Assembly: GCA_045837725.1 (NCBI GenBank)
Contig: JBEWZL010000102.1
Location: 372,001 to 418,177 of the forward strand
Source: Vermamoeba vermiformis
Lineage: Eukaryota
Direction: 5' to 3'
DNA: 46,177 bases
The translations under genes were made by a program, and so were the position numbers. Of this stretch, positions 11,473-46,177 are shown one piece after another; the first letter of the stretch is position 1; each line of letters opens with the position of its first letter. The notes beneath the pieces are model-generated. The model had not been told where the DNA came from. It did not search any database and saw only the letters and a program-made list of their open reading frames with translations.

Positions 11473-14400
11473 TTAAATGTAAAACAACTTCGTAGCCAAG
11501 GTGTTGTCAGGTCTGCTTGGCAACATCGCAGCGGCAGCGAGCTTGGCCAACTTGTCAGCGTACTTCAACGGAGCGGGGCACGAAATAGGACCAGGCCAGT
11601 TGTAGTATAAGTGGCACAAGCTGTACGACAAGCGTTGCAAGTCCTTCATGTCAAAAGTCACCAGCTTCTTGTCGTCGGGCTCCTCGTGGTAGGCCAAGAT
11701 GTACTTCGGAGGTAGAACGGATTCTGAACACGTAGAATGTTAGCACTGATGCGCGTCACAGGTAAGAGCGACTTACTTTGTCCAGCATCGTGTGAGACCA
11801 AGTAGAACTCGCGCTGGCCGTTGCAAATGTGCTTCTCAACGAGGGTGCCAGGCTTGACGTTGGACACAACACCGTTCTCTTGTACGAACAAACGAGTGGT
11901 GCCACCACGACACACTAGCACGAACAACACTTCGGGCTGTGGTTGACCCTTGTACAGCTCAGCAACTGCATTCTTGACCTCTTTGACGTCATTGGTGTGC
12001 TAAGCTTAAGTTAGCGACAGTTCGTTAAAAGATAGTTGATTGTTTTAAAGACTTACCACGGCAACGAGCGAGCCCTCACTGGCACCGCTGCTGTAGAAGA
12101 CCAATCGGCCGGGCAACTTGTTGTTCTTCGTCTTGAAGGCAGCCAAGCCACGCTCAATGATGCTTTGCAACGACGGAATGCTGCCCGCGTTCTCACCCAC
12201 GTGATAGTTGAAGTACTCGGAGAATCGAGTCGGCTCTTTATCAACCGTGCACGTGACTGCAATCTTTGTCGTAGTTCTATAATTTAAGAGATTAGTAAGC
12301 CAGCCATATTGATAATTAAACAATACGTACGCTGTCTTTCTGTGGATCGATCGCTCAATGCCAAACACGCACGTGTGAAGCGCTGCCAACTTGTTGCCCA
12401 ACGGATCACCAAGTTCGACTACACCAGGAAATATATTAGTAATTCGTGCAATAAAAATTACGCGTGTTACGTACAAGTAGTGCTCCACAACACTGCACCG
12501 GCCTTGGTGAGCAGTTGCAAGCCAGCTTTCGTGACCTTGGACATGTCGGGACGGCCACCCTTGTTCAAGAATTTGCTGTCAACGAGTTAGTGATGCTGTC
12601 GCGGTGGTGGTCTAATTTGCAACTTACTCTCGCACAACAATTTGGCCAGGAACACCAGCGAGCAACAAGTCGCGCTTGACGGAGTTGTAAATGTTCACGT
12701 CGACACTTGCCAACACGACCAACACGACGGCTGGTTTGGGATTGGCCTTGCCAACTTGACTGATGTTTTTGTAGTTGTCAGTGACCCACTGAGGCTGTTC
12801 GATACCGTTCGGACACAATGGGCGCATCAACTTCACGAAAGTGTCGTAGAAGTTTCTGGCGTCACCCTCGAGCTGTTAATGACACGTGTCAGATCAAGGT
12901 TGGTGTGAAATGTCCTATTGTAGACTTACCGATCGATCAGTGACCCAGATCTGCCATGGGAACGTCGGCACGTTGAGCATCTTGTTGTTGGAATCATTGC
13001 GCAGCAAATGATCCCACAAGGGTTTCTCGGGTCGGTACTCTTGCGCGTGGAACTTGATCTTTTGAGGACGCAAGACGACAGCTTGAGGGTTGAAGAACTG
13101 ACTGTCCAACTGGACCGTTGAAAATTTGCTCGCTTTGGCCGTGGTTGCAAACTGCGTGATGAACTGTGAGAGCTGCTTGTGGCGGTCAACAGTTGAAGTC
13201 ACTGGCAAGCGTGTGTTCTTGAGTTCACTGGGGGGACTACAGTTCAAGTGTTAGTGCAACGGTCCTGCGAACACTAACGAGCTACTTACATTCCAGCGAT
13301 CTTGCAGAACTCGGGCACGAGGAAAATCGACTCCACACCTTGCTTTCGGCGCTGTGTCACTTCGAGCATGGGCTGGTTAACGGTCTAAAGTGGCACGTGT
13401 CAGATCAGATCCGATCCTCAATTGAAATATTTAAACGATATCGTTTTAGTACTTACGCGCAGTCGCAGACCATATCTAGTCTGATAGTAGTTGGCGTACG
13501 ATTGCTTCGTGCCATCTTTCAGCTCAAAGACGCTGTTTGGAGTCATGTCTCTGCGGACCTTGTCTACGATGTAATGGCGTCTATTGTGCTCGCAGTACAC
13601 CGACTGGCCCCGCATCTTGTCAGGGTCAGTGGTGTTGACGTAATGCAAGGCATTATCTGCCATAAGGAAAGTGAGTTAGTGCGTGGTAAATCTGTCATCG
13701 GAAAATTAAATTTCCTCCCAAACACGTGCTTTATCCTTATTTAGAAATAAAATCTTTACTACGTAATTTGATATATATTAAAGTTGTACTATAATTTATA
13801 AGCTTGATTTACCTCGTGCGATGGCGCGGTACTGAAAGTCGGTGTGCAAGTAGAGCTGCTTGTTGTGCAACACTACGACCTGTAATTATAGTCAGTTATA
13901 TTTGCAGACCATAAGACCGACGTACCGGATTAAAACCAGGCATAAACGAGACATTTCTGTCGTTTCCTTCGCTGGCATTGGCGTTGAAAAATCCTCGGCG
14001 ACCCATTGGTGTGAGACCCATGCCTTTCGTCAAGATCTAACAAAACAACGAAATTAGCTTGAGCATATTATAATAAGGTCCTATATAATGCAGTACTTAC
14101 GGGTTTTAAAAGAATGTTAATGATTTGGCAGATGAAAGCGCCCTCTGCAAATTTGAGCCAAAATTAGATCGTGCACTTTAGCGGATCTGGTTCGACTTAC
14201 CTTTACGCCAAACCATCTCGTATTCTTCGCCACCTGATTGCCTATACACGCGCTGCATGCCTTGCACGTCGGCTTCAAAATTGAACGCATCTGGGCCCGA
14301 GATTATGATTGAACAAACAGGTACTTCAGTCTCCACGCCATCCGTTTTGATTTTCTCCGTGAGCTCTAGCGGGGTCTTAAGATAGTTGGCGGGCAACGGG

Positions 14401-39512: not shown

Positions 39513-42500
39513 ATGTCTGGTCCTAGAACAAAATCTGCAACATTTCAGCGACGTTTTAAGTGGTGCACCACAATGTCTAAGTACGCTAAAAGGCAGATAG
39601 AAAAACAGCAGTCCGATAATAGGCATCGTGGCGGATCTGTCGATATTTTTGAAGAGGATGTTGACAGTGACGAGTTTGCTATCGACTCTGAAGACTCGGA
39701 AGAAGAGATTAAGAAAGTACATAAAAAGAGCTTCGGAAAAATTAAATTAGATCAACCTTCTGACGTTGTTGGCTGGGGTAAGCGAATTTAATCAAAATTA
39801 TTTTCGTTCTTGTCTTTTTCCATCCGACGTGATTTTTATCGAAATTATATGCTATGTATATAGCAACACGATCATAATATTAGTTTGCACGAAGAATGCA
39901 CGCTAAATTATTTTTTGACAGACAAAACCAGATTGAGCATTGCCGAAAAAGGAGGTAAGCGTTTGTGTGGCTAATTATCGTTGATTAATTCATATGTATA
40001 ATAAATAATTATAACAGGATTTGGAGCCTCGCTAGTTTCACTTTTGAACCACAATTCAGCTCAAGTTAAAGATCTCACCAACGCTGCTATCTCATCCTTA
40101 AACATTACAGGTAAAATACCAAAAGTACTATTTTTAGGGTGCCGGAAATATTATCGAAGAATTTTCGAAATGGAGCCGTAACGGATGTCAACAAAATTAC
40201 TAAAAATTTAAATTTGTCAGAGGAAGGCGTGATCACCATCAAATCGCTCGAAGGCCTCATTCCTATATTTAAATTGGCCAAAATAGACGATGCTGAGGTC
40301 CAATGCAAAGCTGTCTGGGCTCTGGCCATTATTGCCAGCCAAAATGGTACGTGCATCTCGTTACAAAACCGCCAAAAACCTACAATTAAGCCAAAATATT
40401 ACGTTAGTCCCAAATAATATTATTTACAATAATTGTTTAATCGGATTGTATTTTTAAGACGGATCTTATAATTTAATAACTTTTTCTTCATTACTCACCA
40501 CTCGTTATTTTTAGGCGGAAATTTGCGTCTATTTAATCTCAAAGGCAGCTGGTTACTTTTGAAGCGCCTATCATTCTCTCACAACACCGCGACTCAATGG
40601 GGCATTGCAAATATTGTCGGACACATGGCCTTATACGGTACGACGATATTCTCGAGTCTAAACATAGCACCATATTAATATACAATAGGCCCTAATCTCC
40701 CACAAATGGTCGAAAAAGGTGTCGTGCAAATGCTCAAAGTTTTTTCAACGAGTGAAAGTTTGTACGTGCGCAGATCTGCAATGAATGCCTACGCCCTGTT
40801 GAGCTCTGATGGTACGACCTATATAATGATTATATAGTAGGTGCCTAATACTATTTAATGCATAGCTAAGAATGCTGCTATTCTCGCACAAGACGGCGGA
40901 ATTGATTTCGTAATGACACAACTCAAATACAACGACCTCGAACTTCAACGTGCAGTCGTGCATTGTATTGCGAACATTGCTAATGCTGGTACGTCTAATC
41001 TATTACTCTTCATCTATGCTGTAGTTGTCACAACGAATGTTCAAATTGTGACACGTGTCAAGCACGAAGTTGAATTTGACCGGGTTGACACGTGTCACAT
41101 TCTTTCTCGTACCGCGTAGGAAATATTTTGCACGTGAATGTACCTTACAAACTCATTTTATCGTTCACATAATATAACTATCATAATTTTTTACGAAAGT
41201 GGAATTGACGTGTTGCAATTTCTAGGCGATGTATGGCAAGAGGAAATCGTCAAATGGAACGGCATTGAATTGCTACAACATTTGCTGCAAAACAAAGACT
41301 GGATCTTGCAACAAACTGCCGCGCTGTGCTTGTGTCGCTTGACCTCGAATCGTACGTGACACTTTCAATGACACTTTTGACATCTTTTTTGACATTTGTA
41401 CTACCAGCTCTTGTGTGCAAGGAATTCTGCACCCGAGGTTCGTTTGAAGTGCCGTTTGAATTGCTCGTGATTGAAGATTTGGATCTAAGACTGAGTCTCG
41501 TGACTACGATCAATAACTTGGCCCAACACACCTCGTGTCGTGACCGAATGTTAGCGAGCATTGAGATCAGCAAGAAGACTAAAGAGACTGATAATTTGGC
41601 CTTTTTGATTCAATTGATTCGCAACACCGAAGATCATGACATTCAACGCGAGTGTCTCGGTGCCGTGAAACAATTGCACCCCGAGTTCTTTGACCGTAAG
41701 TCGAGATTTCCTTATTTGGTATAACCACGTGACTAACATTGCCGGTCTCTCATAGCTGCATTGTACGCAGCCGCACAGCTACAAATGCTGGACTCGATGG
41801 CCTCGAGCGAAGATGACGATGAAGATGTCAAGCCAAAGGTATCCAAACGTGAATTGAAACGTGTGGAGAGCAAGAAGGAAGCTAGAAAGAGCGATAAGAA
41901 GGCAAAGGACAAAGATAAGAAGGATGACACGAAAGGTAAAGTTAACTGCATAGTCGTAGCATTGAATTAACATTAACGTACTGATTGCTTCTTAGCGAAA
42001 AAAGATCGTGCCCTGCGAGTGCGACAACAAATCAGCAATTTCTTCTCGACAGACAAAAAACTCTCGCAAGACGCGTTAGCGAGACTGTTGCAACACGCGT
42101 CATCTGTCACGCGCACTGGTGACAAGAAGACGGACTTTATTAAGGTTATGTTGGCGCTTATTCAAGAAGACAAGAGCCACGGTGTTCAAAAGCAAGCTAT
42201 AATCGGCATTAGAAGGTTGGCAAAACGAGGTATGACACTTTGTGACACGTGTCAACATGTCACTTCAGACTGGTCTGACACTCTTGGCAGGCACCAAATC
42301 CAAATCGCTCGTGCGTCACTCTGGAGCCGTTGAGATCTTAATTGACGTCGTGAAGTCTGACAAAAAGCCTCGCTCTGTGTTGTCCGTGGCATTGCGTACT
42401 TTGTCGTACTTGATCACGACCGTTAAGGATCAGAACAAGATCAGAGAATCATCTTTATTTCCTTATTTGGTTAATATTGCCGAGAGCTCTCCTTCCGACA

Positions 42501-43716
42501 AGATACGTCAGAATGCCATTAAGCTCATTTTCAAGGCCATCTTTGACAATGGTACGCATCAAATCTTTGAAATTTCGTGTGACTCGAGGCTGACTTGTCG
42601 TTCTAGCCACATCACAATTCGCGATGAGAAATGCAGGAGGCTTGAAATTGGTGCAAAATATCTTGAACAGCCCTGCCCTCGACACGTACTACCAATCACT
42701 TGCGTGCCGCGTAATATCTGGATTCAGCTACAGCAATGGTACGTCGCTCATGCACTTTATTTCTATTACATTGTTCTGGTCCTAATTGTTTTTGTTGCAG
42801 CCACTATTCAGAAACAAATCGTTGAGATGGGTATCTTGGACAAATTGATCGAGATTGTGCGCAGCTCTCCATCGGTCATGTTATTGTACAGATCAATCGA
42901 CGCCATCCATGCCTCGTGCTTCAATAACAGTACGTCGATAAGAATGCATTTCCAAATTAGGAAAGTCAAATGCTAATTTAATTTTTTCACGTCAGACACG
43001 AACAAGGAATTAGTGCTGCACAGCGGTGGCATCGAACAAATCATCGCACTGCTCGACGAGAATGAAAGCACTAATGTGCCCAATGTGCTTTTGTCGTGCG
43101 TTTTGTCGTGCTTGTCCGCATTAGCTGACGGCAATCGTAAGTGGTCCATGATGTTTGCAAGCCTCAGTATTAACCTTGAAATGCTTAGCTGAGATCCAAA
43201 AGTACATCTACGAGAAGAATGTGCTGCACTTGCTCGGTTCACAGCTTCAAAAAGATGACGCGAGTTTGTTAGGACATGCGACACGATGTCTCATGGACTT
43301 GCTCAAGAACAACGGTACGGACCTTGATACTATAGCTATTCACTATACTTATGCTTATCCAATGCTCTGTAGTGGTTATGCAAGAGGCACTGGCGAAAAG
43401 CAACGAAAAAATTCTCGAAAAGATTGTCGAGTTGCTGGATTCAGAAAACCAAGGCGTGCAACAGAATTGTGTGGCATTGTTGGCGTTGCTTGCACGCATT
43501 GAAGGTTCGTTTTTTTATTCCAACATGAACACTGCTTCTTCACGCACTCGTCCAGTACTCACAATTATGTTTTTTATAGAGGGTCACAAGAGAATTCTCG
43601 AGACCGACTTCAAACGCCGCTTATTGGCCCTACTTCAAACAAACAACGTAGAGATGCGCCAGCTGGCAGAAGTGTGCTTAAGACTGTTGTCCAATGTGGC
43701 TGACGAATCTTTTTAG
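39513..43716 (+). CDS. Armadillo-repeat protein, many exons
   Basis: Repeated ARM helices (EVQCKAVWALAIIA, ELQRAVVHCIANIA, ILQQTAALCLCRL, GVQQNCVALLALLA) and a central Lys/Asp-rich linker; divergent from DENND10 across about 220 bp. Confidence 0.85.
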
Positions 43717-44082
43717 ATAAAGAAAGAGGTGTAAGTAACGAAATCTCGTTTGTGCTTGCTGGCTCTAAACAGGTGCACAAGCACGCCGTACGGCGGATCC
43801 GCTTATCAGCAGTTTTCACAAATTTGTGAGCAGCGACATTTTCTTTGGAGAAGTTCCCAGCCCGTACAATCTGACGCCGATCTATCCGCTTATCACCAAC
43901 TTCCATGAGCAAGTAGCCGACCTTATATTCTCAACGTAAGTATTGCGAAAACGTCACTGAAATATTGTTGTTGGTGCACATCTTCGAGCACAAAATTGTT
44001 GAACAACTAGCAAGGCGTTTTGTTGCTGAGTTCGGCCTACAATGACACGGCGAAAATTTTGTTGAGGATCGCATCAACGCCA

Positions 44083-44155
44083 GCCCGCTTAGCTCAGTCG
44101 GTAGAGCGCACGGCTCTTAACCGTGTGGTCGTGGGTTCGAGCCCCACAGCGGGCG
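44083..44155 (+). tRNA. tRNA-Lys-CTT: tRNA-Lys (anticodon CTT)
   Basis: 73 nt; acceptor stem GCCCGCT/AGCGGGC, D arm GCTC-AGTCGGTA-GAGC, anticodon arm CACGG-CTCTTAA-CCGTG, T loop GGTTCGAGCC; followed by T runs consistent with a Pol III terminator. Confidence 0.98.
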
Positions 44156-44472
44156 TATTTCTTTTTATTTTTTTGTTTTGTCCTTTCTTGTGAAGCCTTC
44201 TTCTGGTTCCTGTTCCTATCAACGAGCTCTTTATTATTTCCCGAAGGTATGCCAACAACATGTGTTTTTTCCATTGCGCTACGAAAAGGACCCGAACATG
44301 AGGAAGCGAACGGAGATGCGATCCATGGTAGCTTATAACACCGCAAGCGTTGTCGGAAAAGAGTTTGGTCGGGAAACGATCAAACCAAGTGCAAAGACCC
44401 GCCAAATCTCCATGGCCACCAATTTTTGCTGCAAAGAAGTTTATTCTAATTCTGATTCTTGATCTCTGCACC

Positions 44473-46177
44473 ATGGCTAATAGTTCAGCATTTGATACAT
44501 CACCAGTAACTGTTGGTAAATATAACGAATTTTAATATTATTATGATCCTTCCTTGTAAATTACTAATTTTAAATCCAGGTGATCGGCCAAACGCTGCTT
44601 TAATAGCAGAGGAAATCAAAAATAACGCCCCCAATTGGGCTGAAGCGATGAAAATACCCTTTTGGAAAGCCTTAAGCAAGCAAACAACAAAAGATAATGC
44701 TTATAAAAGGTACCGTCGTTCCTTTGTGCTCATCTGACCAGACTGCAGCGTTGAGGAGTTTTTTGCTCGAAAGAAAATAAAGCCTTCGTGGATCAAGCTC
44801 GATCGTCTTTGTGAAGGACAAATGTGCGGATTTTTTGGATACAAAGGTTGTCTCTTGTCCAAGCTTTGGGACACAGTTCAAGAGGTCCACAAATTCCTCA
44901 ACACCGTTTCAGAGGTACCTCAGCCATTACAATTAACATCATTATCAACTAGCATATTGTTAGGAAGTTAGCAGACCAGACAAATCTGCAAAAGAGGTGC
45001 GACAAGCGCTTTCAGAGCACGTAGAAATGTTAGTAGTAAGTGTTGACTTAGGGCAGAATTGAGATTCAGCTATATTAATTGTGACTGTGTTAGCCACCTC
45101 TGCTGCTTGACTTGTTCCCACACGACTTTGAGTGGCACTTACAATCACTGTACATGGATCTGGCAACTCCAAACAACACAGAAGTTCTCTCTTCCATTTT
45201 CTATCGTTACTTTAAATATTCGTTTCCCTTCACCAGGTATTGCAATCACAAATGATTCATAATATTTGTTTTCTGACCAGTTGAATGCAGCAACAAATCA
45301 ATGTGTTTTCCCACACAAGCTCTAGCTGAAGATCAGGGACCAGATCTGGAGTTGTATGCAGAAGAAGGCAAGAACAATACCATCTTCTTGGTTTGTGAAT
45401 ATGAAGATGTTGAGCACAAGAATCTGCTCAAGTTGATGGATACTCTACAGAGTGTGATTTTACAGAGGGTTCAGCAATACCCATCTGCCAGCAACAATGC
45501 ACTGGGTGTTCTTTGCAGAGGAAACAAAATGACAATGTTTCTTATGCTTTACAACCAGACCAGCAACGACTTTACTTGTTCCTTTCTTGCTGAAAACCAA
45601 ACAGACTTGTATACAGCTTTGATTGACTTAGAGAACATCAGCACACTTCTGCACTGCAACATTGTGATAATGATTGCTGGCAAAACTTTATACTTGGGCC
45701 CAAGCCAGTGCCATGACACTGATCTGAATAACAATGAAAAGAATCAAAATACAAAGGATGAGAAGGAAGAAGAAAGGCATCAACAAGGTGGAATATTTGA
45801 GAAGCTCATAAGTGACAAACTGCAACAGCACAAGTACATTGTGCAAGAGATGCTCTCCACGAAAGTTTATCAGGTCTACTTTAATGATCAAGACTACGTT
45901 GCTAAGGTACATACTTACTAGTAGTAGAAGAATGAATTCCTCCAAAACAATGCTAATTTGTCCTATTTTAGTTCTACTTCACTTCAGAGGCAAAATCAAG
46001 GGAGGAATTAATATTGGAGAAGCTCAGCGACAAATTTTTGAAGCCAGTTGACAGCTTCAAGATTTCAGATGAGATTAGGTGTGTTATTTTTCCATACATT
46101 GAGAACTGTAGCTGGCTTAAGCGACATGAATTTGTCGAAGATGTACGATCAGTTCTACTCGCCCTTGCTGAGTTGCA
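44473..46177 (+). pseudogene. Nuclease-like plus protein-kinase-like gene (Crinkler-type architecture), probably pseudogenised; runs off the window
   Basis: PDLELY..IFLVCEYE (PD-(D/E)xK-like), then a kinase N-lobe (KVYQV..YVAK|F..REELILEKL..VIFPYIE..VLLALAEL); in-frame TGA at 44735; strong CpG depletion. Confidence 0.6.

Follow-up and report, generated by a model that had tools for sequence, protein, structure and literature searches.

A CpG-depleted island within an apparently intact kinase-type gene on a Vermamoeba contig: a probable footprint of 5-methylcytosine deamination

Loss of CpG with gain of TpG and CpA is the classical footprint of 5-methylcytosine (5mC) deamination at symmetrically methylated CpG sites, and mosaic methylomes are marked by a bimodal CpG observed/expected ratio (o/e) that sets methylated genes apart from unmethylated ones. 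A different process, the repeat-induced point mutation (RIP) of Neurospora, favours CpA-to-TpA changes, raises TpA and acts on duplicated DNA. The closest described system to the locus considered here is the repressive CpG methylation of Acanthamoeba castellanii, in which 381 genes (2.4%) are reported to be highly CpG-methylated, mostly silent and poorly conserved, with kinase activity among the functions enriched in the methylated set and with methylation of silent genes covering promoter as well as body (PMC12344493). The same report contrasts this pattern with the gene-body methylation of animals and plants, which marks conserved housekeeping genes. Viral and non-conserved genes are likewise described as methylated in Acanthamoeba (PMC12210455), and A. 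castellanii is described as carrying both DNMT1 and DNMT3; for Vermamoeba vermiformis, the gene counts in Supplementary Table 1 of PMC12344493 are two for DNMT1, one for DNMT2 and none for DNMT3. We have analysed a 46,177-nt stretch of the V. vermiformis assembly GCA_045837725.1 (contig JBEWZL010000102.1, forward-strand positions 372,001 to 418,177; hereafter the window, numbered from its first letter), at the right-hand end of which a gene that appears to encode a protein kinase domain is depleted of CpG over about 1 kb. With moderate confidence we read this as a local domain of 5mC-driven CpG decay in a weakly expressed, lineage-restricted kinase gene.

The window as a whole is rich in CpG (o/e 1.18 at a GC content of 40.4%). 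When CpG o/e was scanned in sliding 600-bp windows across the 46 kb, it lay between 0.80 and 1.78 wherever the start was below 44401 and fell to 0.60, 0.60, 0.24 and 0.12 in the final four, which also have the highest TG+CA o/e of the window (1.51-1.57). These values bear out a first-pass annotation, made from the letters alone, that had described a depleted locus with abundant TG and CA in otherwise CpG-rich DNA and had proposed such a scan as a check; its count of a single CpG in 45241-45840, at 45567, proved exact on recounting. The core of the depletion, flanked by CpGs at 45221 and 45860, holds one CpG where 30.3 would be expected at the o/e of the window (Poisson 2e-12), and two adjacent gaps within it, of 346 and 293 bp, are the longest CpG-free gaps in the 46 kb, the third-longest being 147 bp and the median 15 bp. 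CpG declines gradually from about 44400, reaches its lowest level, an o/e of 0.08-0.09 by 300-bp windows, at 45300-45800 and begins to recover past 45860, with five CpGs in 46028-46160. Because of this partial recovery in the last 150 bp, the depletion is an island of about 1 kb (45036-46027, 6 CpGs in 992 bp) rather than an open-ended block, and the island sits inside a gene that is depleted more mildly.

The depletion was compared with expectation by resampling codons with the residues held fixed, the codons being drawn from 18 reference open reading frames (ORFs) of the window in 5000 runs. Exon 6 of the gene has 3 CpGs against 21.0 +/- 3.6 expected; none of the 5000 resamplings gave three or fewer, and the minimum was 9. 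The deficit is smaller in exons 1-5 (17 against 24.6 expected, P = 0.026) and in exon 7 (5 in 206 nt against 11.0, P = 0.006). The loss of C in exon 6 is confined to the CpG context, cytosines outside CpG being unaffected: C occupies the third codon position before G at 2 of 28 sites (7%) versus 335 of 748 (45%) in the reference ORFs, and before any other base at 46 of 81 (57%) versus 741 of 1525 (49%). The two contexts differ sharply within exon 6 (Fisher test, 2e-06), and before bases other than G exon 6 resembles the reference (Fisher test, 0.17). NCG codons number 1 of 30 in exon 6 and 174 of 865 in the reference, and the three Arg codons of exon 6 are all AGR (CGN 0 of 3), compared with 72% CGN in the reference.

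The deficit of 30.0 CpGs is accompanied by nearly equal excesses of TG (21.9) and CA (22.6), a symmetry which indicates changes on both strands and counts against a deaminase acting on one of them. Introns 3-6 have no CpG in 226 nt, whereas six neighbouring introns, 363 nt in total, have 11, so the depletion is regional and reaches non-coding DNA; the spacer upstream of the ATG, with 14 CpGs in 317 bp, is at an o/e of 0.99. A corresponding tally was made at the protein level against five relatives of the gene product (described below; P0001 and P0008 were excluded). Arg is found in at least two relatives at 11 aligned columns, at only one of which the window copy retains it; of the remaining ten, six have Gln in this copy and one has His, the residues that CGN-to-CAN changes produce. 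These observations support the conclusion that the depletion bears a CpG-to-TpG/CpA transition signature that is both context-dependent and strand-symmetric. This part of the original proposal of methylation-driven decay is supported by sequence context, strand symmetry, introns and Arg-to-Gln/His replacements alike, whereas the part that rested on TGA stops is not (see below).

A non-mutational cause, namely the composition of an odd protein or selection on the mRNA against CpG, might be suspected from exon 6 itself, which is poor in Arg (1.5% versus 4.8% in the reference), rich in Gln (8.3% versus 3.4%) and has a GC content of 0.26 at second codon positions. However, since 21 CpGs are still expected when the amino acids are fixed, amino-acid content is not the cause, and the Arg deficit is itself explained by the Arg-to-Gln/His replacements at Arg columns of the family. 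The resampling result and the CpG-free introns 3-6 together lead us to reject this explanation, which we hold to be very improbable. A process of the fungal RIP type, to which the locus is similar in its local C-to-T hypermutation, was also considered. It differs from RIP in that TpA is depleted (o/e 0.44 at the island) and CpA+TpG raised (CA o/e 1.60), which excludes such a process; in addition, the host is an amoeba and no repeat is detectable in the DNA run X1, in which the gene and its flanks have comparable word depths (55.6-243 and 87-375, respectively), so that the segment is not a high-copy repeat. With classical CpG decay, on the other hand, the locus shares a low CpG o/e, a reciprocal excess of TpG and CpA, strand symmetry and the involvement of non-coding sites; it departs from it in being a domain of only about 1 kb, in one gene, within 46 kb at an o/e of 1.2.

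The gene can be modelled as seven exons on the + strand (Table 1) that form a continuous open frame of 458 codons leaving the window at its end. Codon log-odds are best for the model frame in seven of seven exons (in exon 6, 41.9 versus -100.4 and -128.3 for the other frames). Contigs of run X5 have GT..AG joints in + orientation that skip 64, 39 and 58 nt (introns 1, 2 and 4), and these joints indicate that the contigs derive from RNA; they cover exons 1-5 only, at a depth of 1.4-3.6, which falls to zero beyond 45220. Further downstream, intron 5 is the sole GT..AG choice linking the two open frames on either side of it, and at the position of intron 6 the open frames of the relatives all run through a conserved YVAK/V boundary. 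The introns of this region are very short, 39-75 nt among the 12 examined (in 42230-43579 and 44516-45971), and have a strong CTRAY branch motif (CTGAC, CTAAT) near the 3' end; a CpG also falls among the first six donor-site bases in four of six neighbouring introns (GTACG or GTTCG).

This model bears directly on six TGA triplets (44735, 45060, 45108, 45129, 45253 and 45274) that the first-pass annotation had taken for stops in plausible frames. All six are present and none is an in-frame stop in the model, four (44735, 45060, 45253 and 45274) being intronic and two (45108 and 45129) out of frame. The TGA at 44735, thought to break an otherwise open exon frame, lies in the 39-nt intron that is spliced in X5; since 39 is divisible by three, reading through this intron leaves the frame unshifted, which is why it looked open apart from the TGA. 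Splicing, which had been named as a way to check these triplets, in fact removes those at 44735 and 45060 with their introns in the X5 contigs, which resemble complementary DNA. For those at 44735 and 45274 the suggested origin from CGA codons also fails, both belonging to a CTGAC branch motif that occurs in neighbouring introns as well. Indeed, many introns contain a TGA by virtue of a CTGAC branch site, and such triplets can mimic in-frame stops; the lesson for annotation is that a CTGAC-containing intron with a length divisible by three can pass for an in-frame TGA stop. The TGA-stop reading of the locus is refuted, and the gene is, as far as its sequence can tell, apparently intact, intron-containing and not visibly broken.

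It might still be argued that the gene is a decaying pseudogene, inactivated via CGA-to-TGA and other CpG transitions, as had originally been supposed. The one X5 contig with the acceptor at 44971 represents an isoform that is frameshifted and ends at TGA 45108; exons 6 and 7 have no RNA support; and, compared with the family, the window copy lacks four residues and has Arg in place of Gly within motifs that are otherwise conserved, has a linker of much reduced length and shows the Arg-to-Gln/His replacements. Against decay, with canonical introns all six TGAs fall out of frame or outside the exons, two of the four intronic ones being part of the branch motif itself, and the frame is open over all seven exons, in each of which the codon log-odds favour it. 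The window copy also keeps 12 of the 12 invariant columns of the family, as it does by definition, and P0001, a relative 96% identical and from an independent record, has the same open frame. We therefore regard a pseudogene as quite unlikely.

Table 1. Features at the right-hand end of the window, with the evidence for each
Feature	Position	Strand	Remarks
tRNA-Lys (CTT)	44083..44155	+	ARAGORN; 317 bp upstream of start codon; CpG-normal side of locus
Spacer, putative promoter	44156..44472	.	Between tRNA gene and ATG; CpG normal
Exon 1	44473..44515	+	Begins ATG; donor 44515/44516 confirmed by X5 spliced contig
Intron 1	44516..44579	+	64 nt, GT..AG; TACTAAT branch motif; X5 joint
Exon 2	44580..44709	+	X5 joints, frame, codon log-odds
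Intron 2	44710..44748	+	39 nt, GT..AG; TGA 44735 in CTGAC branch motif; X5 joint
Exon 3	44749..44914	+	X5 joints, frame, codon log-odds
Intron 3 (in-frame model)	44915..44963	+	49 nt, GT..AG; alternative acceptor 44971 (X5 loose end 44970)
Exon 4 (in-frame model)	44964..45035	+	Codon log-odds 3.5 vs -16.3 and -7.0
Intron 4	45036..45093	+	58 nt, GT..AG; holds TGA 45060; CpG-free; X5 joint
Exon 5	45094..45236	+	TGAs 45108 and 45129 out of frame; codon log-odds marginal, 0.6 vs -1.2
Intron 5 (predicted)	45237..45290	+	54 nt, GT..AG; TGAs 45253 and 45274 (latter in TCTGAC branch motif); CpG-free
Exon 6	45291..45906	+	616 nt, 3 CpG; conserved N-domain, low-complexity linker, kinase-domain start; homologues P0001-P0006
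Intron 6 (predicted)	45907..45971	+	65 nt, GT..AG; TGCTAAT branch motif; CpG-free
Exon 7	45972..46177	+	Kinase N-lobe; runs off window end
Core CpG-free island	45222..45859	no strand	1 CpG in 638 bp, at 45567

An exhaustive HMMER search of the 214-residue exon 6 ORF against 1.84 billion cluster representatives gave seven matches, namely P0001 (96% identity), P0002 (55%), P0003-P0006 (33-39%) and a Mytilus SRCR protein, P0007 (E value 2.8e-05), which was judged a spurious low-complexity or repeat match and kept out of the alignment. The credible relatives among the 1.84 billion representatives thus number only six, all of them proteins without a name; an additional sequence, P0008, clusters with P0004 at 90% identity. 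The family has a common layout, in which an N-domain of about 130 residues is followed by a low-complexity linker, the start of a kinase domain as far as YVAK and then read-through of the intron, and P0001 likewise reads through DNA corresponding to exon 6, intron 6 and exon 7. Exon 7 matches the continuation of P0003 (47% identity, E value 7e-19), and the residues of P0003 beyond this match Pfam Pkinase (PF00069; 7e-09, 35.9 bits versus a cut-off of 31.7). The window ends ahead of the kinase catalytic loop, and its exons and raw ORFs at the locus gave only sub-threshold noise in Pfam. On the strength of the two P0003 matches, the kinase half of the nuclease-kinase label originally given to the gene appears reasonable.

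The nuclease half of that label finds no such backing. No Pfam family was matched by the N-domain, either in the exons of the window or in any of eight family members. An AlphaFold model of the exon 6 ORF, built with 8 sequences, is of low quality (mean pLDDT 48.6), and with it Foldseek found no match in the PDB at an E value of 0.001 or below (best 1.1e-03). The best folds are those of CE-clan cysteine proteases and deubiquitylases, with VIA-align Z scores of at most 6.4, a range that the tool calls indecisive; nuclease-type chains among the matches listed are Rai1 (Z 4.3) and exonuclease 5 (Z 3.4), both weak. In a protein atlas the nearest clusters are Pkinase_fungal (0.81 and 0.80) and SPOK2_N (0.76), all below 0.9 and hence leads only, and the match of P0003 to Pkinase_fungal is sub-threshold (E value 0.0074, 15.5 bits versus a cut-off of 24.1). 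Word-based homology searches gave no match for the 214-residue ORF among longer proteins, and none for the 77-residue exon 3 ORF among proteins of 42-135 residues, a result that is not informative on coding. With a non-kinase domain at its N terminus and a divergent kinase after it, the gene product would be similar to the Spok spore-killer proteins (nuclease plus kinase) and the FunK1 kinases of fungi, membership of which we do not claim; it is unlike Spok in that no nuclease family or fold was found and that the weak folds point to CE-clan proteases and deubiquitylases.

The small and patchy family, with its six relatives, raises the question of whether exon 6 or the whole gene came from a CpG-poor source, such as a giant virus, a mobile element or conversion by a heavily methylated paralogue, and has not yet ameliorated. 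Giant-virus-derived genes are reported in Vermamoeba genomes (bioRxiv 10.64898/2026.05.21.726589), kinases common to amoebae and giant viruses are described as frequent in Acanthamoeba (PMC12210455), and the gene adjoins a tRNA gene. One X1 contig matches the locus only from 44634 on, being preceded by 255 unrelated letters; this divergent 5' flank may indicate a second copy or a structural allele. Another, over 45188-45388, shows 15 letter differences and 9 gaps. The two contigs point to another haplotype of the locus, to a structural allele or to a paralogue of the gene. However, searches for the relatives' DNA with alignment A1 gave 26 pattern matches in IMG/VR viral contigs and 80 in JGI metagenome contigs, none of which was confirmed. 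Moreover, codon usage at CpG-neutral sites is host-like, as seen above for third-position C before bases other than G, the six short GT..AG introns with their CTRAY branch motifs are of host type, the depletion is graded across one gene and forms no sharp-edged block, and the X1 depth resembles that of the flanks. We consider an origin from a CpG-poor source unlikely.

An assembly chimera, in which a CpG-poor segment of another organism had been joined to the contig, was also weighed, as the X1 contigs over the locus are unitigs of 167-410 bp and none of those listed spans the whole stretch. Yet the CpG-poor exon 6 and the CpG-recovering exon 7 continue one reading frame and both align to P0003 in the same domain order; P0001, from another record, reads through the same succession of exon 6, intron 6 and exon 7, and the introns are of host type throughout. 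The single frame on a single relative and the read-through in P0001 make a chimera unlikely, and the X5 contigs in addition join exons 1-5; we give this explanation next to no weight.

As to the host, the ORF of a ZIP transporter in the window is 86% identical to a V. vermiformis protein of EukProt and 89% to further records, so that the DNA is that of a Vermamoeba-like amoeba (Amoebozoa, Tubulinea), which may be a divergent member of the species complex. Two metagenome contigs, L001 and L002, found via the neighbouring ARM gene, end short of the position of the target gene; their background CpG o/e is 1.30 and 1.24, respectively, and in neither does any 600-bp window fall below 1.04.

We propose that the gene, with at least seven exons on the + strand and a lineage-restricted N-domain followed by a protein-kinase domain, contains a roughly 1-kb domain, with exon 6 at its centre, that was, or still is, symmetrically methylated at CpG. 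This methylation would be maintained most plausibly by DNMT1, and spontaneous deamination of 5-methylcytosine would have turned nearly every CpG of the domain into TpG or CpA, the remainder of the gene being depleted more mildly. Purifying selection may have tolerated such changes at synonymous sites, in introns and in Arg codons able to become Gln or His, and by filtering the changes in this way would have kept the reading frame open. The gene would be weakly expressed at best, and the upstream tRNA gene with the CpG-normal spacer would represent the unmethylated side of the locus. We infer 5mC as the cause, DNMT1 as the enzyme and a repressive role of the mark, and by analogy a 5mC cause is plausible in this lineage given the DNMT1 genes of V. 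vermiformis and the precedent of Acanthamoeba.

Comparison with that precedent shows both agreement and difference. The A. castellanii system, as described in PMC12344493, likewise involves an amoebozoan host with DNMT1, which for the present locus is as listed for V. vermiformis, a background that is largely unmethylated or, here, CpG-rich, and targets that are weakly expressed or silent and lineage-restricted, with kinase activity enriched in the methylated set; a lineage-restricted, kinase-encoding gene that is weakly expressed at best would fit this class. However, 5mC was seen there and the present locus shows a mutational footprint alone; V. vermiformis, as listed, has no DNMT3, an enzyme that A. 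castellanii possesses along with DNMT1; and the island is short and has no viral relative in the IMG/VR search. Gene-body methylation of the animal and plant type was rejected as a model, since the gene is poorly conserved (six relatives) and its RNA support is low or absent.

The raw RNA runs X15 and X17 gave no reads on 44240-46177, though the neighbouring ARM-repeat gene was covered. Both are labelled with the species of the DNA run that matches best, and most of their reads are less than 90% identical to the window, which indicates that they come from a divergent strain. Over 42000-43800 they show many third-position-like differences from the window, and to judge from these reads the species label seems to cover deeply divergent lineages.

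Several points weigh against methylation-driven decay and should be set beside the evidence for it. The spacer that would hold the promoter is CpG-normal, unlike the promoter-plus-body pattern described for Acanthamoeba. The TG+CA excess of 44.5 is larger than the CpG deficit of 30.0, and must be in part compositional because exon 6 is rich in Gln; the substitution tally, furthermore, was made on the proteins of five relatives, not on their DNA. Introns 5 and 6 and exons 6 and 7 lie where X5 coverage is zero, and the single X5 contig over intron 3 uses the acceptor at 44971 instead of 44963. The silence of X15 and X17 may reflect absence or divergence of the gene rather than its repression. 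Finally, the DNMT set of this strain is assumed from that of V. vermiformis, the nearest records being only 86-89% identical to it at the ZIP protein, and full-text searches of the literature found no Vermamoeba methylome.

If the footprint does record real methylation, it would imply that the listed Vermamoeba DNMT1 genes act on nuclear DNA and that, in a genome otherwise rich in CpG, 5mC is directed to a very small number of lineage-restricted genes. The repressive 5mC that Acanthamoeba places on young or foreign genes would then extend to another amoebozoan lineage, one that is distant and has no DNMT3. The kind of footprint is already known, and the locus adds an instance of it in a lineage for which our searches found no methylome. 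A scan for CpG-free islands is, moreover, a cheap route to candidate methylated loci in amoeba genomes that have no methylome data. A more far-reaching version can be imagined, in which a tubulinean amoeba with DNMT1 and without DNMT3 maintains, in a single-copy, intact and spliced gene, a 5mC island of about 1 kb that is heritable and has sharp bounds, with the promoter spared and the tRNA gene possibly acting as a barrier. Such a pattern would resemble neither the repression over promoter and body in Acanthamoeba nor the gene-body methylation that animals and plants place on conserved genes. In this version the target would possibly be a host-silenced selfish gene with two domains, one protease- or nuclease-like and the other a kinase, as in toxin-antidote elements of the Spok type; this we offer as speculation that is rather improbable as a whole.

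Some minor observations concern the surroundings of the gene. The tRNA-Lys(CTT) gene has an X1 word depth of about 6700, compared with about 100-370 in its flanks, and from this very high depth it is evidently multi-copy. Just downstream of it, a T-rich tract at 44156-44192 attracts poly-T loose ends of RNA runs, and water and aquifer metagenomes are among the runs that match small parts of the stretch, none of those listed being registered as RNA. Elsewhere in the window, two ORFs on the - strand at 11661-12578 match Pfam Piwi (E values 7.8e-09 and 1.1e-07); for the 177-residue Piwi ORF no sequence match was found in the PDB at an E value of 0.001. Gene density is high, with about 50 ORFs of at least 110 codons in the 46 kb, and 7 of 40 scanned ORFs have a Pfam match (Mito_carr, two Piwi, Pirin_C, two ZIP and ARM).

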